Shown piece by piece: positions 13,596-47,757 of a stretch of 51,928 nucleotides of DNA. The position numbers and the translations under genes are program-made. The stretch comes from a virus (lineage: Duplodnaviria > Heunggongvirae > Uroviricota > Caudoviricetes). Every line of letters starts with the position of its first letter. Within the stretch, counting starts at the first letter, position 1. The notes below the pieces were generated by a model. The model ran no database searches, had not been told where the DNA came from, and saw nothing but the letters and a program-made list of their open reading frames with translations. The stretch covers positions 64,001-115,928 of the IMG/VR virus record IMGVR_UViG_3300031867_000014, one strand, 5' to 3'.

Positions 13596-16500
13596 TTAAG
13601 TTAATGAAGATGGACTATAGGAATGGCTAGTTAATGATGTACCAGTACCATTATTAGAAACAGTATAAAGTGCAGGTGCACCCGGTCCACTCTTACTCCA
13701 TTTAGAAGCACCGTCTTTATTATCTGAAGTATTATACCAAATATATCGTCCGCTCTAGAAAATGTTACTATAAGAAATAATACTATAAGTACCAGTTTGA
13801 ATACTATGACTAGATGGCTTATAGGTATATTTTGTTTCTGAATTACCAGTATTAGCATATGTCGTAGCGGCTTTTGGTCCTTTAATTAATGTATTAGATC
13901 CACTTTTTTCAGTTGTAATCTTACCTACAGCTGCATTCCAGCCTGCCAAATATCCATCATTATAAGGCGTATTAATACCATACTAACTACTATAACCAGT
14001 AGCGGCAACAGTATCATCAGAACTATTAGTTAAAGTTGCTTTACCACGAACATAAGTTTTATGTGTAGAACTATCTACAGGATATTCAGTCGCAGCTGTT
14101 AATGCATATGTAACTTTAGAACTACTATTATCATCAGCTACTGTAGTTAATGATTTAGGCACCGTGATACTGCCTGCGCTTGTTGTAGAAGAGGTAAATT
14201 TAATTAATTTACATGCATCATTCCAACCATCTTTATAAATATCAGCTATATATTCATTTAATCCTGACATTGTCATTGGATAATAGCTATTTAAAATTTT
14301 AACATCAACTGCAATACGACCTTTGCCTGGATTTGTGCTTAAAGTAGTTTCACTATTAGGTCCAGAATTAGACGCAATAGCTTGCGAAACTAATTTATAT
14401 TCATGGCCGCCAGCAGAAGTATTAATACCCCATTCTGAATTACGTACGCCAATCAATTTACTAATTCGATCAACCGGTAAATGAATTGATAATCCGCTTG
14501 AAGTTTTCGCCCAAGTAGTTCCACCATCAGCAGTCGCATCTACAATTTCTGCTACTTCATACAAAGGACCAATATCAAAATATGTATAAGCACCGCTAGA
14601 ATAGGCTACGCCAACCCAACTTTCAGTGTCTGGCAATGTATTAGTAATTTCTCCTTCAGTAAATGAAATACCCATATTGCCAGTAAAAACCGTTGAACCA
14701 GTAATACTACCATCAGCATTAAACTTAGTACCTGCTGCTGAACTTAAAGTAACATAAATTAAGCCAGGTCCTGCATCATTAATATTTAAACTCAAAACTC
14801 TTTATATTTTCATATAAAGTCAGACTATATCTTCATCCACTTAATATGGATGCCCACCACTTCGAGCAATCGCCCTACTCCATACGGATAGTCGTTGAAC
14901 CTTCTTATCACTAAGCTTGGCTGCTGATTACCCATTGTCACAACACTTAGGATTTAACCATATGTCATCTCATTTATTATTTCTGCTTTCGCTCCATATA
15001 GGCAAATGAGCTTTAGGGCTTCCCAGCAATTCGATGGGTATTTTTTCACGCTTATTACTAAACGCGCACACAATTTAAATATTACCCAAAATTAATTTGG
15101 ATTCCTGAACCATTATGTGAATGATTTTTTGCTACACCATATGCGCGATTAGCAGTACCTTGTGCACCCGATGTAGCACTAGCTAATGCAGCGACGATTG
15201 GAGCTAACTAATCGACTACCCATTTTTTAGTCGCTACTTCATAAGCAATGACGCCGCCACTATTTGTTGAAGAGCTAGTACGAATATATAAATCTTTAAC
15301 AAACATAGTGGTCGTATCAATGGTAGAAAATGTGCCAGTTTTACCAGTAATTAAATCCCAATCTAATAATCCATTAATGGCACCTGAACCAGTTTTTGTT
15401 GGTGTAATTAAAGAAAAATGTTGAGATTGACCACCTGAAGGAGCAGTATAATTTTCTAATAAACGGAAACCACGATCTTCATGCGTTATACTAAAATAAT
15501 TTAATGAAGAAATTGTTTGTTTAGTGGCAGGCGTTAATGTGTATTGATTAAAAGTAATATTAGTAGTATAATCAATATTGGTCTACTGAGTATTACCAAC
15601 ACTAGACCCAGTTTCTTGAGAAGTACTAGTAAATGAAGTAGGTGCACCAAAAGTAGTACCAGTAGAACCAAGTTCACTTGAAAATGAATAAGAAATATTT
15701 TGTGTCGTATTACCTTTAATATTATAGCCCGCTAATAAAATAGTCGCACTATCATTGGTCATATCGCCCAAAGTAATTTGTTTATTCTTACCATCTAATA
15801 CGATCTAACCATTTGCTAAAGAAAGTTTTGCATTTGGCCCATCAAAAATATTAGAATATAAATTTTCTTTAGTTAAATCCCCTGTTGAATTCATTTGTAA
15901 ACCCAATAATAAAGATCCAGCAAGAGCCATATTACCATCATGGTAGGCCAATAATGGTATACTATAAGTTATTTCTTGATTATTAACAGTTGTAGTATAA
16001 GATTTATAAAATCCCATTCGTTGACCATTTAATAAGAAACAACTGCCATTATATTTATTATGATTATCTAATTGATAAATACCAATACCTGCCGGCGCTG
16101 ATCCAATCCCATATTGTGAATCAATAGCAGTGGGTTTGGCTGAAATACTAACATAACAATTACCATCTTCAAAAAAGCTAATTGGTGACATACCTTGACG
16201 AATACTGTCATAAGCTTTGTTAATGGTTTTTGCAACATTATTAGCCAATGTATCTAACGCAACTGTAGATTGTAATGCTAATGCACTTAATTCACCTAAA
16301 GTATCTTTAGAAATCGCCGGGCATTCTTGCCAACCATTGCGATTTTGCACTTCAGTTTTTGGAACGCCATTTACATCTAATAAACCCTACTCTGGATTAC
16401 CTGTCCATTTATAACAAATATATCCATTCATGGTTTTCTCAGTTAATTGAGAAATAGTATAAGCATAGTCTGAGTCCTGAGCAGGTTCAGTGTCATTTAA

Positions 16501-19500
16501 ATCTGTACCTTCAGTTTGTTCCATACCAAAAGTAGTAATATCATTAAAATCACTTACTTTGGCAGAAGTATCGTACCATAAATCTCCGACAATTAATAAA
16601 TCGCCGTAGGCTTTATTACAAATACCGCCATCTGTTGCCTTATTTGCCGGATTAATATCTGCATAATATGTATTTGCAAAACGTGATTGAACATCATGAT
16701 ATTCACCATCTGGCATACTGATCTATAGACTAGTTGCACGAACTTCACCTTGTAAATATGCGCGATTCAAATGAACAACGCCATTATGTTCAATACCAAA
16801 GTTAGGATAAAGCTATGTCGGAACGCCGGGATTTAAATCATTACCGTCGCCAGCCCAGAAAATATAACGTCCATAACGGCTACTTGGCTTTTCACCATTA
16901 TTACTAAAATCAAAATGAGTAGATTCGGAACTATCCCAGTAAACATCATCATATTCAATGGACGTATCTTCAGCATTAACAGGTATACCATCACGACGTC
17001 TCTCCTAACCTATAAAAATAATACCATTATTTTTTTGATATGTCAAACCTGTCGCTGAAAGCTATAAACAATCACCAATCATACCGTACCGAGCAATAAT
17101 ACCACCGCTCATATAAACACCATTATTTGGATCAACAACAAAATAATCGTGTTCATTATCATCGCGGAAAGTATCTGCCCATGCTGTATTAATCCATCCA
17201 AACTATTTAGCGCGGCTATAGTTTTCTAATGTACTTTCTAAATTTAATTTCTTATTTTTAGAATATAAGAAGTATTGTGAGAAAGAGCCATTGTCGGTTG
17301 CAATAGAACCATCTTCACTAATACTAAAATGGATTGGATTTAAGTTAATATAATGATCTTGAGAATAATCACTAATTAATGCGCGAGTGCCATCAAATTT
17401 AATCTGGCCTCGACCAGCCGGACCAATAAATCCAGTACCATCAATTTTAAATCCAAATGTTTGAGCACCATGAGAAAAGCCGTACAAACCAATAGGATCA
17501 ATAGATGAGTCACCTTTAGACGACCAGTCACCCATCATCACACCAGTAAAACGATTGCGTGTATCTTTAGTACCTGCGGCAAGCATTTTCGTTAATATAG
17601 CATTATTCTCTTTATCAAGTTGTAACTGTCCATCCCAACTATTAACAAGAGATGAAGCATAAACATTATGCGCGAATGCTATTGCCTGATAAACAACAGC
17701 TCCATTCAACCAGAAGCCAATAAATGTTGCATATTCAGTTTGATATGCATCATCCCAATAAAATGCAATCTAATCACGAATTTGATTAGTGTTATCTAAA
17801 TATGGATTTAGACTATACTCAATATGATAAGCGCTATCATGTTGAGCGACTTCTGAGTTTTCACGACTTTCTGCGTCTTCTGTATTTGTATTAATACGTG
17901 AAATTTGTGACACAGTTTCATTTAATGTTAAGAATTCACGAGTAGAATTATCTAACAATGTGAATGTATCATTAATCTTTTTATACTGCTCTAAGAACCA
18001 TGTCGGCCAAACCAATTTTTCATCCACGACACTCAACACTTCAAATGTACTTGCATCATAAATTGGGATAGTACCATCAGATTTATATTCAATACGATCA
18101 GGACAACCAATACGATAAAAATCACTTAAATTACTGTCAGATGCCGCCATAAAACCACGCACATCTTCAATATTATATTTATATTGAGGATCATGTAAAT
18201 TAACGCTTACTTTAAATACTGGCGGCTAATCAGTTTGTAAATAACCACGTATACTATTGCCAGTATAACCATTTGTACTTAAGGTATCCCAAGTAGAAGG
18301 TTGTGTAACTGTCGTAACATTGCGACCAATGCGGCAAGGGCCATCATTTAATAATTCATAATTAAACGTAAATAATGGTGATTCTAATTTATTACCATTC
18401 TGATCATAAATTGTGCTTTCAATTTGGAATGGTAAATTTTTAATCATCATATATCCCGCAGGATTAGTTAGATCAATACGTAAAGTATATTTAGTGCCAG
18501 TACTACCAGATTGGCCAAAACGCAATTGCTTTTGGCAAACGTATTGTTTACCATTACGGTTAATAATTGCAGTAATAATGTTATCTTGAAAACGAACATC
18601 CCAATAATTGTTAATCTTAAACTTACGAGTTGTTGTCGCAATACTGTTAAATGCAGTCTAACCAGCAGGAATAAGTGTTGAACTATATACTGCATCAGAA
18701 GTATCAATCGGCAAGAACTAAGTAATCATTGTGTCAGATACAGGATATTGCCATGTGACTTTAATTGGATCATTTGTAGATTCAGTGGTTAATGGCACAT
18801 AAGTTTCTGTATCATAATTATAAATCCAAATTTGAATATAATAATAAATATCAGAATAAAAAACTTCTTCATCATTTTTTATGCACTGATTATTTTCATC
18901 ATATACATAAAAATTACCGATACTATTATCTTCAACTAAACGTATTTGTTTATTACCGGCTTCATCTTTATAAGTTTCAGTACGTAATAAACGGAATACA
19001 ACTTCATTACGTGCAGCGGTTAAATCTTCACTAACTGTTGAATTAATATTCTAAAATACAATAGGATCAGAAATCTCATATGTTCCTTCCCAAGCAACAA
19101 CTGCTTTATAACGTTCACGATAAATATTAATATCCATTTGACGTGTAATTTCAAAACAATCAGTATACTCAGGCAATAACTCATAATCATAGCCACCCAA
19201 TGTGCTTAAACGCATTTTTTCTGTGGCTTTAGCATCCTCTTGCAATTCTTGTAATTGTGTTAATTTTCTTTCATAATTTTTCTTAACACGTTCATATTCT
19301 TTAATATAAGCCTCATGCCCACCAGCATAAGTCTCTTCATCATAAGAGGCTAATACTTGTTCCATTTCTGCTTTTAATGTATTATATTTTTCTTCTAATT
19401 CAACAGAAGTAGTGCCAGGCGCGATATATAATTCACCATCTGTATTATTATCATTACTCTTGCGTTGATGATACCAATAAATATGCGCTTTCTTATCTTC

Positions 19501-20622
19501 ATCGTCAATATCCAAATTAAATTGATTCAAAGTAGATTCGCTATTTACTGTTGTATATTCATTTTCTCCCGTTCGATGTACCCATGCAAAATGAATAGTA
19601 CGAGTATCTAAGTCAGCACGAGGTGTCGTTGAATTAAAGTCACGACCATAATTTAAATCATCATATGTAAATAGATAAATTTTTTCATTTTCAATATCTT
19701 TAGAAGATTCTCCAAAGAATACTTGTAATCCTTTTAAATTAATATTTGACATACCTTCATCAGGAATATAAGTATTATCATTTGCATAAAACTTATGATC
19801 TTGCCAAAAGTATGCCCGAATTTCACTAAGTTTTACAAATCTGCGCAAATCCATTAACATCTATTGTGTAGTCCAATCAATAAATGCATATGGATTACCA
19901 TACATTTCATCCGTAGTAAAATAAAACTCTTTTAGTACATCACGCTCAACTTGAATACTATTTTTACCATCTTCAGTAGGCGTTGACCAGTCACCCAAAA
20001 TTAAAAATCGTAATCCATAATTACCAGATACTGGTTGATAAGCGCCCAATAAAGTTTGCCAATCTACTTGAATTCCAAGAGTAGTACCAATTAAAGTGCC
20101 ATCAGCCGGTAAAACCCAACGCCAAATAAGATTTGGGTCTAAGGACACATCGTCTATATCTAACATTGGATCTGCGCCATCTATCGCACGATTTGCATGA
20201 TAACCACGTTCTTCATTGCGTAATAAAATAGTTTGTGTTTCATTGCCAGTTAAATTAAACAATGGAATAAAATCATCAAATGGGTATCTAAAATTAAATA
20301 CTTTAGATGTGCCATCTCCATCTACAGTAGTTTTACGACCGACAATAAATTTTTGTTGAGTGTAGTCATTACGAGGAACATTGACATATACAGTATCGCC
20401 CTCATAATAAGTGCCGCCAGTTGAATATGCTTCAAACTTTGCGCTTTGGATCTGTACTAAATAAACACCATCAGTCTTATCAACTACACTAATGACTTTT
20501 GCTTCAACTGTTGCATCAAAAGAAGCTTTAGATAATTTAGCGTCTACTTGCATTTCAACAGCTTTATTAAAAGTTTCAGCAATGTTAATTGCGCCCTTAG
20601 GTGTATCGTTAGCCAAATTCAC
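13596..20622 (-). CDS. Large tail-tip/central fibre protein, ~2,230 aa, spliced (exon 1 20622-15115, exon 2 14792-13596), TAG=Gln
   Basis: Eight fragments from 19861 to 15583 share one frame across TAGs; fragments 13983 and 13755 share another. Removing the intron joins them in frame (...KNHSH|SLNINDAG...). Start is GTG 20622 or TTG 20616 after AAGGAG; stop TAA 13596. Confidence 0.75.
14793..15114 (-). ncRNA. Group I self-splicing intron, 322 nt, no homing-endonuclease ORF
   Basis: Core elements in order: P AAUUGCUGGGAA (15031-15020), Q AAUCAGCAGCC (14929-14919), R GUUCAACGACUA (14900-14889), S AAGAUAUAGUCU (14833-14822). P9 hairpin CUUUAUAU-GAAA-AUAUAAAG. P1 CACAU|AAU pairs with AUUGUGUG (U-G at the splice site). 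P10 pairs AAUAUUUAAAUU with the 3' exon AGUUUAAAUAUU. Terminal G at 14793. Confidence 0.92.
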
Positions 20623-20728: not shown

Positions 20729-23700
20729 TTAGTGTCTATGAATATATTGTGTTGTCTAATTAATTAAATCATTAAATGCCATTTCAATTTCATTATGATC
20801 AGTAACATTCGGGAACTCAGCCTAAATTTGTACATTTTGTTGTAGATCTTGCGATGTATTACCTACAGACGGAGTCGTAATACCGGCACCGAACATATTT
20901 AAAGCATTACCACTTAATAAATTTAAAATTTCAGGAGTTAAAGTACGCACTACTTTTACAGCATTAAGCATAATACTTGTGTCATCTGCATTAAGCATTA
21001 ACTCTGGATGTGATTTAGTGCCATCCACCCAAGCAGGACCAGTATAATCAACTAAACCGCCAGTAGCATAATGAGAATCACCGGGATATACAATACCCAT
21101 ATAATGACCGCATTTACTGCAATAACAAGTTTTTGTACCACCAGTTGGTACTTTTTTATTCCAATCATGTGCGCCACTTTCTGAGGTAGTTTGTGTTTTA
21201 CCACTCTTATATAACTTAAATATTGAACGGCTATGTCCGCTATTACCATTATCTTTCCAATCTCCCACATCTGTGCGCACAACTGAATCAGTATTATTAT
21301 TATTATTATTATTATTATTGCCATTATTGCCATTATTACCATTATTGCCATTATTGCCATTATTACCACCAGAACTTGGAATATTAACTGTCGGCTAAGT
21401 TACAGTATAAGAAGTAGTTGCACTACTAAATCCACTTTGTAAGCTTTGCATACTACGTAATGTTTGACCTAAAGTTTGAATTAATTGCTCATATTTACCA
21501 ATTACGCCTTGTACTGCACTTGCATGTGCATCCCATTCATTTGTAGCATCATGAATACCTTCAAGTGTTTCATCAATAGTATCCATCATATCTAAAGCAG
21601 ATTCGTTAGCTTTATTAATCATATCGTTATATTGGTCAATAGATGCAATCATATTATCATAACTGACATTAGAAGTATTTTCAACTTCTTCAATACGAGT
21701 CATGTATTCATCCCAAGCATCATCAATTTCTTGCAAACTTACACGTAATGCTTCTTCATACTCTTGCTGATTATCAATCATTGTCTAAATATCTGCGTCA
21801 AGAGCAGCCGTAACCATTTCAGAATGTTGCGTTTGAGTTAAACCATACCATTCAGTAATAGCACTTAAGTTCTCTGTCATATCGCCAACAACTAATTGAT
21901 ATTGTTCAGCATAATAATCCATAAGTTCAGTATAATGTGCAATAATCTCATCACGCGCATGGAGATATTCTTCATGACTTGCAAAATCACTTTCATCTAA
22001 TTCAGCAAGTTTTTGCTCTAAATTTTGACGTGCTTGAATATAAGCATTGGCCATATCATTCGCATGAGTGACGGTTAAATTACGAATCTTTTCAAGCACT
22101 TCTTCATAATTTTGTTCGGCCGCATTTACAGAATCTTGATCTGCCGTATATTGATAACCATAATTACCATTTTCGTCACGGGTCAAGCGTACTGTAGATT
22201 TAGCATTCTTCGCTTCTTCTAATTGCTGTAATGCTAAAGCCATTTCATATTGTAACTGATATTGCTGAATTTGATAGTCAGTTAATTGTGAACTTTCAGC
22301 TTGTGCATTAATAACTGCTTCTAAAGCAGCTAAACGCTCTTTGCTAGCTTGCGTGGTAGCGTCAGCAATAGATTCTTCAATCTAGCGATTTAATTTAGAA
22401 ACTTCATATAATTGTTTACCTGTAGCTAAGTACAACTATGATTGTTCATTCCAATAACCATAAGCATCGGCCACATCTTGCAAATCATTATGACCTGCAA
22501 CATTAACTTTACTTAAAGTTTTAAGAATAGATGCAACATATTCTTCATGGGCCTTTTGTAAGTCCGTTAAAGTTTCTTTAGTTGTTGACAACATCTCTTC
22601 ATGAGCTGAGACATATTTTTCAACCAAATCTTCCCATTGTTTTTGTTCGGTCTCAGTTAATTTATGACCAGCATCCATGCGGCGTTGGTAATATTGAATT
22701 TCTTTTTCTAATTCATCGACCCACGCACGTTGAACTTCAAGATTTTTTATATTAGACTCATACTATAAATTATAGAAATCTTCAAGAGCTTTATAATCAA
22801 CTGTATGACCCATAAGCCCCATAATGTCAATATATTCTTGCGCAACTTTATTAGCATGTTCAATAACTTTAGTATGCTTTTCTAATTCTTCATCGGCTTT
22901 CTTTAAAGCATCACCATATACATCAAGAATTTCTTTACGAAGTTTTTCAAGATCTTCAAGTGCATCAATAATTTGACCACGATACTCAGCTAATTGTTCA
23001 GCATAATCAGCATCATTAACGCCTTCTTGGCCATTAGATTCTATAAATTTACGATGCTCATTTTCTAATTCTTCAAGAGCACCATTATAAGCACGAAGAT
23101 TATCTTCATATTCAGCAGATTTAGTAATCATTGTTTCAAACATTTCATCTTGCATATGAAGTACATCTTCCATCTTCTCGATGAAATATTCGATAACTTT
23201 AATGTCATCTTCATTTAAGTCAACAACTAAATCAACTTTATATGTAATAACTTCAACAGTGGCTTGAGAAATTTTATTTTGCATCTCAAGTAAATTATTA
23301 TATTCATTTTGTGCTAAATCTAATGTGGTTTCATATTGTTCAAGAATCTTTTTACGTTCTTCGTATTCTTTCTCTGCTGCTTCTAATGCTTTTTTATCAG
23401 CCTCTTCTTGTGCTGACATATTATAGCGATCATAAGCTGCATCGAGTTCATCTAACCAATTATTCATAATTTGTACATAGTTTGCAATAGTACCATCGTC
23501 ATTAAAAGTCGCACCCAATGCAGCAATCGCCGCACGGTCTGATGGTAAATATTCATTGATTTCACGCAAATATTCTTCTTGCAAAGCAGCTTCGCGCTTT
23601 AAAGCATCAATTTCTTTATTCAATTCGGCGATATGTTTTCCGCCATATGTACGAGATTTAATTTTATCAATTTGTTCAAGACGTTGTTTTTGAGCATCTA

Positions 23701-26700
23701 ACATATCGAGAATAACATGATAACGTTCAATTTCATCTGAACGCTTTTTCTTTTCTTTGACTTCTTTTTTGCCACCTCCGCCACCTCCGCCGCCACCGCT
23801 ACTTGCAGTAGGTACAGCAGATTTCGCATTACCACGACCATTATATTTTGCGCCCTCTAAAGTATAATATACTTCATCATATGGCTCTGTAGTAGTAGTA
23901 ATTGTATTTTCAAATTCTACAGTATCTAAAGAGTCATTACCAGGGAAGCTATAAGAACCAGATTGATGAGTAATTCGAGGAGGTGGAGTAACTCGACGTT
24001 TATGCTCTTTAATTTCAGCATCTACGCCAACAGTGCTTAAAGCTGCTGTCATAGCTTGTGCAGCTTCATATGAACCAAATTCCATTTGTGCTATTTTGGC
24101 CCAAAAATCAGTATCATCTAAAGAAGCACCAATTTCTAAATCTCCATGCTAATTGATATATTGTTGTGCTTGAGCAAATACACTATCTAAATCACCCATA
24201 ACATTAGCTGGATCAAGTTTTACATTCTTACCAATATTCTATGATAAATCAACTGCTGCAGCACGTGCCAAATCATCAAACGCTTTTTCATCACCTTTAA
24301 CCGCCTTAGCCAATAAATCAGCATTTTCAGCGCTCTTTAAAAATGAATCTGAAAGATGGTCCATACCCCATGCGTCTAAATCAAAAATATCACTATAAAT
24401 ATCTCTCATAGATTCTAATGCATTAGAAAATTCAACTGTTTCTTCGCCACTCTTACTAATGGTTTTAGTAAGTTTTTCTAAGTCCGTACTTGCGGTCTTA
24501 AATCCTTTTTGCATACGTGCCATGCCTTTAGCTAAACGTAAAGCTTCTTCACGAGTTTGAGCAGTCATTTTGCCTAAGCGCTATAAGCGATCTGCGTATT
24601 CTTCTAATTCAATAACGCTACTAAAACCAGCCTATGAAGCCCAATTTTTATACATAAACTCTTGAGCATCTGCTACGGCGGTGCCAGCTTCTGTACCTTC
24701 TGGATTACCATATCTGCTTTGTAAATCTGCTTCTGTTAATTCTTCTGTGCCTTGAATTTTATAACCAATAACAGTGTGACCATCTTCAGAATATACTGGA
24801 ACGATTTGAGCATTTCCACCATGAGCCTAATTCCATTCTTGCCCCGCGGTACTTTGTAACCAAGCTTGTGCTTGTGCATAAGCACGTGCTAATGCGTCCT
24901 CCATAGATTCAGTCTAAGTGGTTACATTTTCTATTACTGCGCCCTGATATCCAGCAGGAACTACGCGACCTCGTCTGTCACGGTACTCTACTTCTTGCCA
25001 TGTGCGCTATTGGGCATTAAATTCCATATCTGCATCAACATCACGATAATAAGTAGCTTCACCAGTTTCCTCATTAAATTCTTTAAATTTCCAATCGTCA
25101 TTTAAAGCTTGACGCATACGCCATAAAGCAGCAGTAGTTTCATCCATGGAAGTTGCTAACGCATTATTAGCTTCATCTAATGTATCCCATCCGCCTTCTT
25201 CCATTAATTCATCTAACTATGCTCGCTCTGCTGCAGTTAAGGATTTCATACCTTGTTCCATAGCTTTCTGAACTAATGCTTGATCACTTTGTAATTTTGC
25301 AGTACGATTAGCGGCTTCTGCCTCTACTTGTGCCCGAGTATCACTCTAATAACGCGCTTCAGTAATCATGGCAGAACGAGTCGCGCCAACTACATCAGAG
25401 TCAGTTACCTTACCGACATAGAATGTTTCAATTATATCACTAATAATAGAAGCAATCCAATCTTGACTTAATTGTCCATCAGAAGATTTCCATTGCCATT
25501 CACCTTCAGCATTTTGTTCTACCATTTGATCACTATTTGCCAAACTAAGAGCAGTAACAACATTGGCCCACTGTGCATTATAAGCATCTTCACCCAAACG
25601 GTCTTTAGCAACAGCTGCACTTGCATAACCTTGCGCTTGCCAATAAGTATCTTCATTAGCCCAGGTATTAATGTCTTGCACACCTTTTTCGGTAGCTTGA
25701 CGAAGAACTGCCATGCCACCTTCCATCATATCAATGAGTTCGCCGCCAAATTCATCTGCTGATTCCATAAAACGAGTTGTTAACCTATCACGCATATTTG
25801 CTTTATATTGTTCTGTGGTAGTAGCAGTAACACGACCATTTGCATCATGATTTAAATCTCGCTGACCACTTGTGTTTTGAAAATCTGACTCACCATAACT
25901 TAAAATACGTAGATATGGTGCAGCAGCAGCACTTTGTAGCCAAGTTGGATCATTTAATGCATTAGTAATTTCTTCAACCGTCATACCATTCTCTTGCATT
26001 TTACGAACAATTGGGTCTAATTGAGCATCAGTTAATTGATCTACTAATGATTTAGTTGTGTCACCACTGGCTAAATTTTGGCGAACTTTATTCACTGCCT
26101 CAAAAGTGGTTTTCCAACGATCATAATATTTTTGTGCTAATTCTGCATCATAAGCATCAATTTTATCTAAAACACCCTTAACAGTATCTTTAATATTTGC
26201 CCATGTAACTTCAACTGCATTTTCAAATGCACTTAAAGAAGAATTATATTTAGTTTCAAATACTGCAAAAAATTCATCCCAAGTATGTCCATCCGCGATA
26301 AATTCTTCAATACTTGCATATGATTCGCCTAAATCTGCATTCAACTATGATAATGTATCAGAAATTAAAGAACCGAACATCTTTTTCTATATAGCATTAA
26401 ATTGACTATCTTCTAAATAACCGCCAGTAAAATAATCCATAAATTGTTCATTACCATATTCAGCTGTTGCCAATGCATTTAAAGCATCATCTAAATTAGT
26501 AAATGTTTCTGTGACTGCCTCTGCGTCCTCGGCAGTACTAGCGAATACTTGATAAAGAGGTTCTTCTTCAGTACCAACATTACGTACTTCTGCTCCAGTG
26601 TAATTTTGAATAAAATTCTATTTTGTCAATCCATTAGCATGTGTACGCACTGCATCTAACGTAATCCCTTCAAATGCACCATTACGCCAAGCAGCATCAA

Positions 26701-29700
26701 ATGAAGTATAAGCCTCTTGACCTTCAGCTAAATGTGCATTTGCATAAGACAATAATGCCTATCTCTAAAATGCATTAAGTTCGCCATGGTATGTCGCATT
26801 TGGATTAGTAGGAGTTGTGCCAATGGCTTCAGTCAACCATGTATCTGTTAATCCTTCTCGATCGAATGCATCAGTTAATCCACTTTGCCATCCAAGTTCT
26901 GACCAAACGTCATCAATTTTCATATCTTTTAATTCTTGTTTAATTTTGCCTAAAATTCTTTCTTGAAAACCTTCGCCTGGGTCAAATTCAGTCATCTAAA
27001 AACCAACATTAAGACCTTCCATTAAATAACGGCCCATTTCAATTGTATATTTAGATGGTGAATTAATACCTAATGCTACTTTAAAAGCACTCAATAATTC
27101 GCCGCCTTGTTCATCAGCTACAGCTTGCCAGTCAACACCACCGTGTTTTAACCCATATACTAAACCTTCTAAAAGCATACGGCCATAATTGCGCATATCT
27201 TCTGTCTGACCATGTTCAGCCATATTTTGAAGAGCTTCATATAATTGTGACATTTCTTGTAATGATACATTCCGTAATTGTTCAGGAGTCATACCCAAAA
27301 TACCATTAATTTTTTGAACAGCACCATATTTAGAGGCATATGACCAACCTTTACTATGTACTTGATCATTAATATTAGAAGCTAAATCGGTAACAGAACC
27401 TGCTGCCCATTGCATAGCATCAGCCATTTGTCCTGCAGAGGTTAATTCATCTAATAATGCACTAGCACGACGATTCATCATATCTTGTACACCCTGTGCA
27501 GATAAATCAACCATAACACTCGCTGTTAAGCCCATAGAATCAATTTGATCTTGTAATTCAGTAGCTGAAGTAGCAATTTCTACTTCAATACCTGCGGACA
27601 ATAATACTTCCTAAGCAGTTGGATCATTTGGATCTAACCAAGAAATAACACCATCAGCATTAATTGAATAATATTTGCCATCATCACCAGCAACAATTTT
27701 TAAACCCATTTCTGTATCTACATGCGCTACTGTACCAGACACCCATTCATGAGTATCTTTATTATATAATTTTAATGCATCAGGATCATCAATATCACTA
27801 TATAAAGAAAAACTACTTGAAACATCTTGACTACCTTCTGGTTTGATGAATTGCCATGTGCCAGTCTATTTATTGAATAATACAAATTTATTCGGATCAT
27901 CAGTTGAAGCCAATGCAAAAGTTGCTGTAGTAGTATCATCATCTGGTAAAATAGTTTTCCAGGTATTACTTGCTGGATCATATAAAGAATAAGTATCTGT
28001 ACTTGGATCATAAAATACTCGTTGAGTAACTGTACCAGTATTAGTATTAGGAGCCGCAGTTAACCATTCGTTTGTATCTTTATTATATAATGTAGTTGGT
28101 ACACCATTCTGATAAAAACCTATATATTGACGTTCCCAGCCACTGCCAGTTAATGGAGTACCAGTAACCCAAGTATTTGTGGCAGTATCATACATACCAG
28201 TAGGAAATCCAGTAGCTTCATCATATTCTACATATTGTGTTTCTGTACCGCTACCAGTCAGAGGTGTTAAAGTTGACCATTGATTTGTTGCCGTGTCATA
28301 AATTGAAGGTACGCCATTAATTATACTAATATATTGAGTTTCACGACCTGACCCACTTAAAGGCGTCATAGTAGACCATGTATTAGAACTTGCATTATAA
28401 ATCGCTGTAGGGACACCATTAGTCATTTCAATATATTGATTTTCATGACCTTCACCACTAACAGGTTCCATAGTAGACCATTCATTGGTATTGGCATTAT
28501 AAACTTTAGCGGCACCATTAATTAAAGCAACATATTGATTTTCATGACCTTCCCCGGTTAATGGTGTCATAGTAGACCATACATTATTTGTTGAGTCATA
28601 TAATGCTTCAGGAACACCATTTTGATTAAACGCCACATATTGCGTATTGGTTCCATCATTACTTAATGGAGTCATAGTAAGCCAGGCATTATCAGCAGGA
28701 CTAAAAATTGCTGTAGGTGTACCATTTTGATCAAAAGCTACTCTCTAAGTGCTGGTGCCTTCGGCGGTCTAAACTTCAATTTCTCGCCATGTCCAATTAT
28801 CAGTATCAAAACCATTTTCTGCTTCTGGAGCAATTTCTGCAGATACTGTAAATGATGTACCACCACCAACAGTTAATCCTTGAGCTTCTTGCAACTATTG
28901 TACTTGTTGTTCTTGACCCTTTAGCATTAACTGAATTTCTGTTGCGGCTTCTGACCATAAGGCTGCTTCATCTAATTCTTCATCATTATCTACTTTACCA
29001 ATATTTCGAATAATTTTATCTACTTCTTCTGCTGTATATCCTACTTCTAATAAAGCCTCTTTTAATTTTTCAATACTGCTAAAATCATTAAAACCTTCAC
29101 CAACAGTCATTTTTTGTAAAGACTATAAAGCCGTTTGAATAGTAGACATTTCTTTTTTCCGAGCTTCTTCGATAGCTTTTGCCGCAGCTTCTGCTTGTTT
29201 CTTAATATTATCATAATAAGTTTTATTTAATGCTTCTTTCTTTTGCATTAACTCTTGTACTTTTGCAGCATCATTAGCATAAAAAGTTAATTGTTCATTA
29301 TAATATTTTTCTGCTTGATCATGAGCATATTTGGCCCATTCTTCACTATTCATAGTCTAATAATTGGTTAATGCATCTGGGTCATATTCTTGTAGGGCTG
29401 TTAGTTCAGACATAGATAATGATCCTAATTTAGTCATAGCTTTTTCAAAAGCTGTGGCTGCGTTAGTCGCTTTTTCAATCGCAGTTACACGTTCTTCCCA
29501 AGCATTATTATCAATTTCATTTTCAGAAGCAATAATTTCATTATAAATAGATGAATAAGTACCCATTAATTCAGTACCACGTTCAACCTATGAATTCATA
29601 CTTTCTAATTCAGAATTTTGTGTGGTCCAATAGTCAGTAAATGAACTACGTGCGTCCCATACTTTTTTAAGCTAATCTTCATCTAATTGACTTAAACTGG

Positions 29701-32700
29701 TGAATTCTGTATCGCTGCCAAATACTTGTTTTAATAATGCTTGTTCTTGATCACGAGTTAAAGTCGCTGCTAAGCTATCGCGCCATGCATTACGTGCTTC
29801 TTCATGATCATCGCCTTTAAAATCGTCCCATTTTTGATCTTGTTTATAATTAGAACGATAAGTAGATTGTGCAGTCTTCGCAGTTGATAAACTATGTGCT
29901 CTAGATTGGAAAGCACGTAATAATGCCTATCCTTCTAAAGCCTAACCAGATTCATCAAATGCCCAAGCATGATTTTCTGCGGTCCAACCATTAGCAATTT
30001 TATTACTTAAAAATCGTTCTAATTCGATATAATATGCATTTAAATCTTCTTCAGCTTCTACTAATTCATCTCTGTTATGACGAATTAATTCAGCATTATC
30101 CGCAATTAATTCAGTATTCAAACGCTCTTGTTCTTGACGCATTTGTAATGCTCGAGTTTCAGGTGATTGACTTGCATAGGCAAATAATTCTTCACGAGTT
30201 TCAAAATACCCCGAATCCCATAAGCTTGAATATTGTTCTTTAGTAATTACACCGCCCTTATCGACTTTTTGAATCGCTTCAATTTGTCCTAACTTTTCTT
30301 GCTTTTTAGCCATTGCTGTTTTTGTAACTGCAGCTTCAACTGCACTATCATCTACATGTACACCAGTAGCATCAATTGTAATAGCCGATGGACGAATACG
30401 TAAAGCGGTATCAATATCAATGGTATGACCATCAATTTCACCATTATAGATCGCAGTTAAAAATTGTTCAGTCATATCAGACTTACTAATACCATTTGCT
30501 TGTACATTAAAATCAGCAACCTTTAGGCCTAATTGAACTGCTGCTTCATACTTAGTGCCAACATCCGACCATTGACTATAGCCTTTTAAAGTACTCGCAA
30601 CATATGCTTGATCTGTTGCATTTAAACCTTGCTCGCCACCCATTTTATGAATTAAATCATACATATCATTAAAATCATGAGTTTCACGACGTAAATTAAA
30701 TGCATCAATATCGTCCGCATAAGTCGTATACATCTATTCGGCCAATTTAGATTGACGAATTTGACGATCGGTATCTGCTAATTCATCGGCACCAATAGAA
30801 TCTAAGAAACCAACTAAATCAGCACTATATTGGCCCCAATCAACCGCCCCAAATTCATTTAAGAAATCATATAAACCAGCCCAATTTTGCTCTTTGCCAG
30901 CCATAGCTACTAATTTATTATTTGACCATTGGAAACCATATTCAGCTAATTGATCTATGTTTGCTTGATTAGATAATAAACGATTCCATTTACCACGTTC
31001 ATCGCTGTCGCTAACTGATCCTAAACCGCGTAAGGCATTATTCTAATTGTAAAACTAATCTAAAGTATCAGCCTATTGGTATAATGCCTCAGCTGCTTCA
31101 CGCGCAGCTTGCGCCTATTCACGCTAAGCAGCGGCTAATTCATGCGCGGCTTGAGCTGCTTGATCTGCAGCATCTGCCGCAGCCATCATACCAGCTGCCG
31201 CATCATCAGCCCACGTAACGTGCTCCCAATGACTACCTTGTCCAAAAGGATGCCATCCAAAAATTTCGATAGAAGCTAATGCATCTACAATGGCATTGCG
31301 CATATCAATAATGGCATTTGCCACAGTTTCTGGAACACTTAAAATCTTTTGAACAACACCCGCAAGTCCACGCAATAAGTTCGCTTTGAAAGATAAAAAG
31401 CCACCACGTAAATCATTAATCCAAGCTAAAACATCTAAAAATACTGCTTTTACACGTTGGCCGAATGCAGCAATACGTAATGCCGCGGTTTGAATCCATT
31501 GTCCAACGCGTACCCATAAAGATGTATTTTTTTGTGCTAAAACATCTACATGCTTTTGTACATTATCTTGCTGTTTGACATGAATTTCTTCTAACTCAGC
31601 AGTAATTTCTTGTTGTTCCGCCGCCATTGCTGCATGCATTTCTTCTGCTAAGGTTTCATAGCGACCACTCAAAACATCTAATGCAGTAACTTGAATACCA
31701 TAAGCTCCAGCAATTTCATTAATTGCATCAACTTGTTCTTCAAGCGTCATAGTAGTATCTTGCGTGACTTCTGCCAAACGCTACATTGCCTCAGCATTAG
31801 CTTGTGATTTTGCTTCTAATTCATTTGATCTCTCTGTTAAAGCCGTCATTTCTTCATCCAATTTAGCTAATTTCTAATCATAAGTTTCAGCATTAGCAAT
31901 AGCACTTATAATAACGGCCGCCAAAACTGCAAATGCTGCAACCGCTGCAATAATTGCACCAATTAAACCAAGTTTAGCCAATTTATTTGCAATAGTTGCC
32001 GCGGTATCTGCATTAGTAGCACCAGTTTCAAGATTTAAACCTAATGTAGAAGAAATCATTGCGCCTAATTTTTGTCTAAAACTAGTAGCTTGTCCTTTCT
32101 AAGCCATAGTATTAATATTGGTTGCAACTGTATTGGCTGTTTGTGCCGCTGTTAATAATGTCTAAATACCTTTAACTGCACTCATAACACCTTTAAATGC
32201 AGAATATGCAGCACCCGCCGCAGCTACAACACCCGTAATACGTTCCATAACAGACGCATTATCAGAAAAAGCAGTTTTTAAACCACCTACCATCATAGCA
32301 GTACTTGCTGCGACTTGTCCAATACCACCTATAACTTCGCCAATACCATCCATTGCATTAGGAGTATCAGCCATTTTTTCCATTTCTTCACGTAATTCTG
32401 CAACTTTTTCTTTCGCTTCATCGATTTTACCAGCGCCATCGCCAATATCAGATAACATTTGTACGTCTGCTACCATTTGATCTCCTGCTCCAGCTTCAAT
32501 TGTATTAGCAGTCTATTGTGCTTGTTCAATAGTATGCCCTTGTTCATCCTATTGTGTTTGTAAATTTGCTTGTCGTGCTTGTATTGAAGCAATAGAAGTA
32601 GCACGGTCAGAATAATTCTCGCGTGTAAATCCAGCTTCATCTAAGCGCGCCTAATATGCCGCTAAATCTTCATCTGCACCTTGTTTCATACCTACTGCTT

Positions 32701-35599
32701 CAGCCGCTTGATAACGAGCATTATCTGCACTCCATTCGCCTTTTTTCGCTCCTTGGCCGAAACTATCATCCTCAAGAAGAGCATCTAATTTTTCACTCTC
32801 AGCCGCTAATTCACCAATTTTTATTGTCGCAGCTTTGATTGTTGCATCACATTGTGCAATTAATTTATCTGCCATTTCAGCAACTTTGGCATCCGCCGTC
32901 GCAATAGCTTCTTCGCCACTATCACTTGCTGCAGTAGCAATAGCATCACCAATAGCATTATTAAAATCAGCAATTGATTTTCCTAATTCAGAATCATCAG
33001 CAATATCGCCAGCGTCTAATTGTACTTTAGGCACAATCTTTCGTTTTTCAAGATCGCCAGCAATTTGTTCTTGCATTTCATCTACATGTGATAAATATTC
33101 ATCAGCTTCTTTTGTCGCGGCATCAGCATCTTCTTGCTTTAATTTACCCGCCTCTTCCATCGCTTGACTTGGCGCTAAAATTTCAGCTTTTTTATCTTCT
33201 AATTCCATTTGTTCTAATTGAATAGTTTCAAGCGCATCTTGTTTACGGTCTAATGCGGCTTGTACTTTATCTAATGTTGCTAATTGTTGATCTAGCTATT
33301 GTTCTAATGCAGTATATTCATCTGAGCCCTATTGCCCTGCGGCTTCCATTGCTGCCATTTTATCCATAGTATCTTGGACGACACTTTCTTGACGAGCTTT
33401 ACTCAATTCTTTTTCACGCACTTCTGCCTAAGCCGCATTTGCTTCATTTTGTTTTAATTGTATATCCTGTTCTACTTCAGCTACTGCTGGCTAAGCAGCA
33501 GCACGCATTTCTTTAGCTTGCTCGATCATTTGACTACCTTCTTCATGAAGTGTGGCCGCACGTGTTTTACGTTCTTCCATTTCGGCAGCTTTAGCCTGTA
33601 CTTCTGCCTATTTTGCTGCTACTTCTTCTGGAGTTAAATTACCTTCAATTTCTAAAGTACCTTCACGTAACATACCTTTATTTTGTTCTAATAATTTATC
33701 AAAACGCGCAGTTTTTGCGGCATCACTTTGACGAGCTTTTGCACCACTATCAGCAGTTTCATTAGCTTTTTTCCAATGTTTTTCCATTTCGCCTAAAATC
33801 TAAGTACGTGCTTCTAAATCACTTTCTTTTTCTGCCATTTTTTCTTCCATACGTGGATTCCAACGATGTTGCTATACTAATTTAGCTTTAGCAGAGCTCA
33901 TGGTACTTAAATTTCTTGCCTATTCTGCACCAGTCATATCACCAGCTGCTTCTCTCTAACGTGCGATGTCAGCTTGCACTTGTGCATTTTCCTTAATCAT
34001 AGCAACATCTTTTTTAGTTTTAGAACCAGTGATCATACCAATGGTATCTTTCATTTTTTCGAATCCTTGGCTAATCATACCTTGGCCACCAAATTTAGAC
34101 ATAAAAGTAGTTGCGATTAATCCCAATAGCGGAACTAAACCGCCCATTTTATCAATAACTGATGTTACACCATTTAATAATTGACTAAATCCATCAATTA
34201 AAACTGTAATTGCTTTATCATCCACTAATTGAGAGTATAAACCCTGCCAAGCATTTTTAACTCTACCAACAGCAGCTTCAGTACTTTTTTCCCAAATTTC
34301 ATTTTGCTTTTCTAATTCGCCACTTGCATTATCTGCTAATTCAACATTAATTTTATAAGTCTCATAATTATCAAAGAAAGCCATCATTTGTGAATATTGA
34401 CGCGCACCACCAATAGTTTGTGCTAAAGCAGATTGTTGCGCACGTGATAATCCAGACCATTTTTCGCCAACTTCGTCAATAACTTTGCCCATATCGCGTA
34501 ATTCTCCGCCGGCATCTAAAATAGTAACGCCGATAGCGTTTAATGCTTTAGAATATTTATTAAGATCTACACCATCTTCTAAAGTTTCTCCTAATTTTAA
34601 ACCACCTAAACGGCTTAAAATAGTGTTCCAAGCAGTACCAACTGTTTCAGCACTTTGACGAGTAACACTAGCTGATGTAGCAATAATTGCAGACATTTGT
34701 TCCATATCTACGCCGACATTATTAGCAGTAGCCGCTACTTTCTGTAAAGCTGTAGAAATTTCTTCCATGCTAGTCGCAGTTTTCGCGCCTAAAGCTGCCA
34801 TGATATCAACATAATGCTCTAATTCATCAGTACCTACTTTATAAGAATTCCAAATAGCTGTCAAATATTCTGACATGTCTTTTGCAGAACTACTAAATGA
34901 AATATTCGCAGCTTTCATGGTGATCGCAGCTTTTTGTACAGCAGTACTAGTTTTATCGCCCTGTTGGAAATAAATTTTGGCTGCATCGGTAAATGCTAAT
35001 GTAGAAGCACTTAATTCTTTACCCATACGTTGTGCTGTCGCTGCAAAGCTGGACATTTCTTTATCAGTCATTTGAGTCACTCGTTGAATTGAATTTAAAC
35101 TATTATTTAAATCCATAGCATAATGTACAGCTTCTTGCAATTTTGCACTAAATTTATGGATAATAGTAGAACTAATTTGCCAAGATGCAGTTTTCTTTAA
35201 ATTAGTCCACAAATTCTAAAAATGCTAATTAACTTGAATAGTAGACTAACCAGTTTTTGCAATCGCCATGGAGAGTTGATTAAAAGTACTAACTCCTTCA
35301 GGCCCCAAATTAGCAAGACTATCATGTAAAGAGCGCAAATCTAAATTACTGGCTTTTAATTGGCTACTAAATTTTGATAGATTTAATTTACCAGTATTAA
35401 CATTCACTGCACCCTATAAAGCTTTTTTCAAATCTTGTGCAGCCTATACGCCCTTTTTTAAGTCTGATGTATCTGCTTTTAGGACTAACTAATTAGATAA
35501 TTTGTTTACTGACTTTTGTAATTCTTCAAGTGACGCACGAGCTTCTTTAGTATCACTCGTTACACGTACAGAAGCAGAAATTACTGTATTCGCTGCCAT
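20729..35599 (-). CDS. Giant tail tape measure protein, ~4,956 aa with TAG=Gln
   Basis: Twenty listed ORF fragments lie in one frame and each ends in TAG. ATG 35599 with AAAGGAGAG RBS; TAA 20729. N-terminal TP901-type TMP core (ALGAKTATSMEEISTALQKVAATA...TVGTAWNTILSRL), long Ala/Glu-rich helices, and C-terminal YATGG...PE.ML and AEFPNVTDHNEIE motifs. Not every inter-fragment gap was checked base by base. Confidence 0.88.
21291..21369 (-). repeat. Coding microsatellite: (GGY-AAT-AAT)n plus (AAT)n, encoding a GNN/poly-Asn linker in the TMP
   Basis: Plus strand shows an (att)n run followed by gccattatt/accattatt tandem units. Confidence 0.85.
27600..28810 (-). repeat. ~30-33-aa tandem repeat block inside the TMP
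   Basis: Recurrent unit W[S/T]TMTPL.G.G.E.QY....NG.P...Y...TN. The DNA repeats catagtagaccat and tattgattttcatgaccttc. Confidence 0.85.
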
Positions 35600-47390: not shown

Positions 47391-47747
47391 TTAATATCCA
47401 GCTTTTTCCATAATATAATCATAACTAATTAAATTCTCTTCAGTATATGGAATTTCAATTAGATTATAATTATTTAGCGCACAAAATCTACGCTTATTTT
47501 TATCGTTAAACTATTGACGATAAAAACCCTACTTTCCACCATATTTAGAAGAAGGCTCATAATGCTATTTTCCCTAATATTCAATTAAGAAATCTACATT
47601 GCCATCATCATCAAAAACACAGAAATCAAATTTTAATGGGCGACCATTAGGACTATTTAATCCTTCAAATTCTTGTTCCATGGTGAAATTTAATCCAGCT
47701 TCGCGCAAGATTTCTTCGATTTTAATTTCTCCTCTTGATGCACGCAT
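47391..47747 (-). CDS. Small PD-(D/E)XK (Vsr/DUF559-like) endonuclease, 118 aa with TAG=Gln
   Basis: SRGE..I...L...F..E..F...LKFDF...LIEY[Q]GK[Q]HY...D..K..FC...LIEIPY. Confidence 0.8.
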
Positions 47748-47757
47748 ATTTGACACC

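Follow-up and report, generated by a model that had tools for sequence, protein, structure and literature searches.

The window analysed in this work, 51,928 nucleotides in length, represents the terminal 52 kb of a virus contig of 115,928 bases (G000), estimated to be 66% complete. Its genes on the minus strand form a morphogenesis block comprised of terminase-like, portal and virion protein genes, the tape-measure gene, the intron-bearing gene described below, and further tail genes. Among the sequencing runs that contain the locus and have a recorded organism, bovine gut metagenomes predominate. The window has a coding cover of 0.55 with code 11 versus 0.96 with code 15, in which TAG is read as glutamine. 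Gln is the commonest residue opposite the 15 TAG codons of exon 1 in the aligned homologues (36 of 105 cells), a count that is partly circular because the same code was used to read the homologues. With its in-frame TAG codons at Gln-conserved columns, the gene belongs to the TAG=Gln recoded phage genes. A search for tRNA genes across the 116-kb contig found none, and a suppressor or a release factor may sit in the missing third of the contig. A promoter and terminator scan gave 12 and 1 sites versus 10.4 and 1.1 expected, i.e. chance level. Throughout the contig, structural genes are heavily recoded at TAG and replication genes hardly at all; late-gene recoding in phages is described in a preprint (bioRxiv 10.1101/2021.08.26.457843). 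The tape-measure gene (20729-35599 of the window) encodes 4,956 amino acids with 61 TAG codons, and the protein has an internal block of ~30-residue repeats (around residues 2,260-2,560) that is unusual for tape measures.

The gene that follows the tape measure in the tail module is split in two. Exon 1 (15115..20622, minus strand, as are all features given here) has 1,836 codons, including the 15 TAG codons read as Gln, and ends in the codons of a His-Ser-His motif (HxH; 15115..15123), the last His codon of which provides the 5' splice-site U. It is followed by an ORF-less group I intron of 322 nt (14793..15114) with the terminal G at 14793, and by exon 2 (13596..14792), which has 398 codons plus TAA with two TAG codons and encodes a variable Ser/Thr/Gly-rich C-terminal part. 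As proposed in the preliminary description of this DNA, excision of the 322 nt (15114..14793) restores a single frame of 2,234 residues under TAG=Q, which reads KNHSH|SLNIND across the junction. Without splicing, the frame closes with NGSGIQINFG at an in-frame TAA (15084-15082), and the 398 C-terminal residues are missing. Read from the sequence, the full-length protein needs both TAG read-through (15 codons in exon 1 and two in exon 2) and splicing, as had been suggested. The true protein of these genes has ~2,200-2,400 residues.

The assignment of the host protein to the tail module is well supported by its position, and the protein is likely to be a tail tip. The earlier identification as a tail-tip protein is borne out in part: the gene follows the tape measure and its N-terminal model resembles minor tail proteins, but sequence searches of PHROG, Pfam and PDB gave no match. 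The model of residues 1-350 (pLDDT 63) contains an OB-like barrel and a carbohydrate-binding-like beta-sandwich; its best named matches are predicted minor tail proteins (E 3e-7 to 3e-4, with low TM-scores), and its matches to the lambda tip chains have E 3e-3 or weaker. The model of the exon-2 part (pLDDT 31) is unusable. Both His residues of the HxH motif are invariant in the six aligned homologues, and this motif may be analogous to the trimeric HxH metal site of fibres and spikes.

The intron had been described as a group I intron with a P/Q/R/S core and a P9 hairpin, for which a search with covariance models was recommended. The Rfam model RF00028 matches positions 15086-14801 with 95.2 bits (gathering threshold 50; E 2.3e-23), with no other Rfam match in the window and no second group I match anywhere in the 116-kb contig. 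All core helices were found, including the P3-P7 pseudoknot and the P4-P6 domain, the complete set in the window intron being P2, P3, P4-P6, P7, P7.1, P7.2, P8 and P9. The P1 loop (15085..15114), in which the exon frame stays open for 10 codons (NGSGIQINFG), contains a 7-bp hairpin (15100-15086) and leads into the internal guide sequence (15067..15084), the first three bases of which are the in-frame TAA (15082..15084) and at the same time the start of the P10 strand. The P10 part of the guide (15084-15072) pairs with exon 2, and its P1 part (15071-15067) pairs with the end of exon 1, with the U.G pair at 15115/15071. Further downstream lie P2 with a GNRA loop (15047..15066), the catalytic core (14823..15038) and the P9 hairpin with a GAAA loop (14800..14819). 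The core includes P3 (15038-15033 with 14858-14853), the P, Q, R and S strands (15031-15020, 14929-14921, 14899-14889 and 14833-14823, respectively), P7.1 (14888-14879), P7.2 (14875-14864) and P8 (14852-14834). The 8-bp P1 of the preliminary description is made up of five exon-side pairs ending in U.G and three intron-side pairs; the P10 pairing to the 3' exon is also present, its length being 13 contiguous pairs including one G-U and not 12 bp. The longest open stretch from M, V or L on either strand has 46 amino acids, in agreement with an ORF-less intron, and no endonuclease ORF was found within its 322 nt; the introns of the relatives L001 and L010 have 321-322 nt. In subgroup IA2 the two extra hairpins P7.1 and P7.2 are found between P7 and the 3' strand of P3. 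These two hairpins, which are paired in all three complete introns of this family, point to subgroup IA2, the commonest subtype among viral introns (PMC11835236).

Frame restoration alone is weak evidence for the splice sites, because 84 nearby U|...G pairs also restore a frame. When these pairs were ranked by the ligated-exon helix, the pair originally proposed was second of 84 with 18 bp, and a site at 15139 scored 22. The U.G pair in P1 is present in all five introns of the family and the terminal G in all three complete ones. Eight of the 24 listed sequencing runs were compared as assembled contigs, four of RNA (X18, X2, X22, X23) and four of DNA (X1, X3, X4, X19). A contig from the RNA run X18 joins 14791 to 15114 and skips 322 nucleotides, which with one base of ambiguity equals 14793-15114; the RNA junction of 15115 to 14792, which had been suggested as a check, was thus seen in one RNA run in the form of an assembled contig. 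The splice sites are therefore settled as predicted, and the ORF-less group I intron is removed at 15115/14792 in one metatranscriptome. Two other 5' sites that keep the frame, at 15124 (a 331-nt intron, suggested by a 7-bp hairpin) and at 15139 (346 nt, with a 9-bp decoy P1), were rejected, as the sole RNA junction seen is at 15115.

The X18 strain is ~96% alike to the window, and the joined contig has a depth of 4.6. The joined form was found in one of four RNA runs and in none of four DNA runs, with the intron kept in all four DNA runs. RNA run X2, which holds the window's own strain, bridges neither junction, and X22 is without the locus; neither of them counts for or against splicing. A second X18 contig consists of intron sequence (14852-15114) and stops exactly at the first base of the intron, a weak hint of free intron. 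Four intron variants in the close strain keep two P8 pairs and change one GNRA loop to another. These data bear on an explanation without splicing, in which exon 2 would be a separate gene and the joined RNA contig would come from an intron-less phage. In-frame starts do exist near exon 2 (TTG 14795, ATG 14813), and open alleles occur in the same clade, but these starts are not preceded by a Shine-Dalgarno-like site, unlike the starts of neighbouring genes. Moreover, the exon variants of the joined contig (14595, 14597, 14691, 15154) are also found on the intron-bearing X3 DNA contig, and the catalytic core is conserved with covariation. The homologues are single open genes; an independently initiated exon 2 in relatives lacking the insert had been named earlier as an observation that would speak against splicing. 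Exon 2 as a gene of its own was rejected on the grounds of these single-gene homologues and the start context, and we regard the explanation without splicing as extremely improbable.

The folding of the window RNA raised the possibility of splicing gated by recoding. A stretch of exon 1 (15136..15154), which contains a possible cryptic 5' site predicted at 15139, has a predicted pairing with the guide and P2 in the window lineage only. Such a decoy would block P1 until a TAG-reading ribosome clears it, so that splicing would await the code switch. The naked window RNA is predicted to fold into an 18-bp decoy, and the predicted probability of the U.G pair rises from 0.23 to 0.999 when the exon is left out. 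The last TAG is located 31 codons upstream, and translation-dependent splicing is known in bacterial group I introns (PMC3073962). However, the decoy is just 0.7 kcal/mol below the native fold, an equally good one arises in 49 of 300 synonymous recodings, and four of four relatives have the native fold as their minimum, although the TAG count of L014 is unreliable in this comparison (11 other stops in the stretch). With no decoy minimum in any of the four relatives, decoy gating was rejected as a mechanism of the family, and for the window itself we consider it very improbable.

Comparison with related phages places the spliced intron in a wider family. Homologous introns lie directly after the second His codon of HxH in L001/L012 (321 nt, 63.9 bits) and L010 (322 nt, 69.5 bits), and introns at the same site, cut by contig ends, in L011 and L014. 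The proteins of these intron-bearing relatives are 40-50% identical to the window protein. The Rfam search in gathering mode missed the L001 intron, which was found at 63.9 bits in E-value mode. In a covariation set of five related rows, two of them partial, 98.2% of cells are paired and eight of 61 pairs have a compensatory change, a level reached by none of 500 shuffles; P3, P4, P6 and P7 are 100% paired in the rows of this alignment that have letters. The two unpaired P1 cells of L014 are attributed to misalignment of that row at P1. A P10 between the guide sequence and the 3' exon is common, though not universal, in group I introns. The window has 13 such pairs, L010 has nine, and L001 has none in register; the guide of L010 has shifted along with its different exon 2, keeping the 9-bp P10. 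Exon 2 is very variable (30% window versus L010). Two database proteins match the predicted spliced forms: P0025 equals the predicted spliced form of L001 (68/68 and 163/164), and P0027 carries exon 2 of L010 (98/98), joined at HSH.

Intron-less alleles, another check put forward in the preliminary description, were found as well. The distant relatives L004-L007 have a single open gene of 1,877-2,412 codons with the same neighbours, and an Rfam search at this tail gene gave no match. Single open genes are also represented by the proteins P0039, P0007 and P0041. P0039, which is 72% identical to the window protein and occurs on 42-48-kb contigs, reads through HTH|NLNF, and its part beyond this point weakly matches exon 2. 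Two further loci end before the junction, L050, which is open over 2,310 codons, and L013. In a quick tree of 16 rows with a midpoint root, a 10-row clade (SH-aLRT 100) includes four rows in which the intron was seen, five rows that stop 8-17 residues after HxH, and P0039, the open sister of the window protein. We infer that the five early-stopping rows, available as protein only, carry the intron. Because the distant relatives and the 72%-identical sister read straight through, the simplest reading is likely to be one old gain followed by one clean loss or replacement in the P0039 lineage. In the related genome G001 the tail-gene intron is again the sole group I intron found. The P7/P7.1 motif is shared by 19 loci and 204 phage records, covered at most 61%; apart from L019 (identical with L001), none of these introns was seen in this tail gene, the host genes being read roughly. 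Searches for relatives in the genome_contigs database, and in IMG/VR for DNA of P0039 and P0028, found none.

The wide occupancy of the site could also result from spread rather than old inheritance, by collaborative homing in which a free-standing endonuclease cuts intron-less HxH alleles. The introns of the window, L001 and L010 are 79-87% identical, more than the flanking exon DNA (60-73%), and an open sister allele exists. Two candidate endonucleases are encoded in the contig, a GIY-YIG domain at G000:27256-27504 and an endonuclease-like gene of 121 amino acids at window positions 47391-47756, between the terminase-like and portal genes (phrog_9084, E 7.5e-29). A precedent is given by F-CphI acting with the psbA intron of cyanophage S-PM2, as described in PMC5931967. 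However, both endonuclease genes are more than 30 kb from the intron, whose host gene adjoins the tape measure and a 128-aa protein, and a search for HNH_3 in the genome (contig 66% complete) found none. Higher identity is expected for a structured RNA between variable exons, and the presence of the intron clusters in one clade. We therefore consider homing quite improbable as compared with old inheritance.

The preliminary description held that examples of phage group I introns in late genes are fewer. This rarity is overstated, since introns in tail, tape-measure, tail-tube and recoded genes have been published. One of the closest systems is the minor tail gene of the BAKA/Optimus mycobacteriophages, in which an ORF-less intron was confirmed by RT-PCR (PMC3706429). 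Like the window intron, it is short (265 bp), of group I type and ORF-less, and it interrupts a siphovirus minor tail gene located downstream of the tape measure, with the exon U, the terminal G, splicing demonstrated on RNA, and open alleles in relatives (PMC3706429). In contrast, that intron has a segment in common, at 98% identity, with a capsid intron that bears an endonuclease, and the phages carrying it are near-identical. The window intron is shared by proteins that are just 40-50% identical, its gene is TAG-recoded, and no mobile sibling of it was found in G000 or G001. In prophages of the Bacillus cereus group, tape-measure, tail-tube and terminase genes, similarly late structural host genes, carry group I introns, many of which have lost their endonuclease (PMC2504315). 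Translation there terminates in P1 or P2, at stops located within the first 27 nt (PMC2504315); unlike in these standard-code phages, the stop in four introns of the present family comes after 30-39 nt and the loop looks codon-like.

Introns in recoded genes are described for Zeta crAss-like phages (PMC7886860), and in their TGA-recoded PolB, as in the tail gene, one gene needs both read-through and intron removal (PMC7886860). In contrast to the present case of a single ORF-less intron in a different phage family, the crAss-like genomes are intron-rich, and their introns were found via endonuclease domains. The psbA intron of S-PM2 is likewise a phage group I intron without an ORF, and both its spliced and its unspliced RNA can be measured (PMC5931967), but it has a free-standing endonuclease downstream and light-dependent splicing (PMC5931967); the unspliced RNA is presumed to yield no functional protein (PMC5931967). 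Jug phages resemble the present phage in being gut phages, and metatranscriptome junctions validate 37 of their 76 introns (PMC12880540), but they use the standard code and have ~18 introns per genome (PMC12880540). In the full-text literature covered, which includes few subscription papers, no paper on this intron family or on tail isoforms made by an intron was found.

Group I splicing proceeds by two guanosine-started transesterifications guided by P1 and P10. The reading that we prefer, with a rough probability of 0.7, is that of a long-inherited, self-splicing ORF-less passenger, in which the TAA would stop ribosomes before the core and the 2,234-residue protein is likely to be the only working product. 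Late in infection TAG would be read as Gln, and ribosomes on the pre-mRNA would halt at the TAA and come off 10 nt upstream of the guide G, after which P1 and the core would fold. By the established chemistry, the first attack, after the U.G pair in P1, would come from free guanosine bound in P7, and the second, after the terminal G, from the released end of exon 1, with P10 aligning it. The spliced mRNA would yield the full protein. A single insertion into the HxH codon would have brought the intron into the ancestor of the clade, probably together with an endonuclease that has since been lost, and the intron would persist because nothing but exact removal is tolerated; the P0039 lineage would have lost or replaced it cleanly. 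An in-frame TAA is located 3-10 nt upstream of the guide G in all five introns, so that ribosomes would be released before the core. This agrees with the general rule of a stop just inside the intron, stated for phage and bacterial group I introns in two reports (PMC3073962, PMC2504315). Against the passenger reading stand the occurrence of the spliced form in one run and in a neighbouring strain, and the missing in-register P10 of L001. The codon-like loop and a kept Trp residue are explained by it incompletely.

These last features bear on the earlier suggestion that spliced and unspliced RNA could yield functional long and short isoforms, which is not supported, as the early stop is the normal rule and the tail of L014 has a single residue. 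The corresponding alternative is a domesticated switch, in which incomplete splicing would give a short Trp-bearing capped protein beside the long form, either with both being used or with the short one being marked, e.g. for degradation; we consider it unlikely. In a more specific version, which we find doubtful, unspliced RNA would encode a Trp-ended cap after HxH and spliced RNA would add the variable distal part of 400-530 residues, thus giving two tip proteins. If this were true, the production of two tip proteins from one gene would be the reason for keeping a single intron across a deep clade, and the tail-gene intron is indeed the sole group I intron found in both G000 and G001.

The codon use of the in-frame loop is exon-like in L001, L010 and L011 (0.34-0.44 per codon, exon mean 0.32). 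The loop score is reached by 5 of 3012 shuffles in L001, 4 of 3393 in L010 and 14 of 3273 in L011, counts that are not independent because the rows are kin, and the loop value is reached by none of the stop-free intron-body windows in L001 (0/312) and L010 (0/318). On the other side, the window's own tail is weakly codon-like (191 of 2474 shuffles and 8 of 289 body windows reach it), and non-synonymous changes prevail among L001, L010 and L011 (6/0, 5/1 and 3/1). The whole-codon indels can be explained by the necessity to keep the frame to the TAA. A Trp is found 10-12 residues after HxH in seven of 10 lineages, and within the last three residues in six of 10, at a Trp content of 0.5% in the nearby exon; but P0005 has no Trp, and L014/P0006 have the one-residue tail. 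The shared loop codons are identical in DNA and form an RNA hairpin with a compensatory change, which may account for both the codon-like tails and the kept Trp. A contig of the RNA run X23 spans the unspliced 5' junction, which fits a switch, but it may be pre-mRNA or DNA. Finally, the open alleles with the HxH motif run 118-581 residues beyond the motif, which is at variance with a short capped form.

In terms of annotation, standard tools break these genes up twice, at TAG codons and at the intron, and in one relative the intron escaped fast Rfam filters. For intron evolution, this is a clean case of an intron without an endonuclease that seems to have persisted throughout a deep clade of phages, apparently with a single exact loss, and the question of why ORF-less introns persist becomes testable in one gene. 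Should the short form prove functional, the gene would provide a rare example of alternative splicing being put to use in a structural protein of a phage.

Several additional observations were made in the related phages. The record of L006 (G004), which has no tail-gene intron, has 10 group I matches elsewhere, several of them clustered at 76-81 kb. Three other recoded phages (L020, L023, L032) have a similar group I intron in a gene of the head-tail region, followed by a GIY-YIG-like ORF in two of the loci and by none in the third. The near-identical phages L001 and L010/P0003 (end branches 0.004) differ in the end of exon 1, in the intron (87%) and in exon 2, and P0027 joins an L001-like exon-1 end (54/68) to the L010 exon 2 (98/98), which suggests module swapping with crossovers near the HxH site. 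In the C-terminal part of P0039, residues 2065-2202 match Intein_splicing (Hint/intein-like) with E 5.6e-7, a match under the cut-off. A PT-HINT domain (E 9e-12) is located at 427-870 of L001, near the end of the tape measure; the window is without either domain. A 2,909-aa homologue, P0002, has three copies of a ~450-residue block before the junction region.
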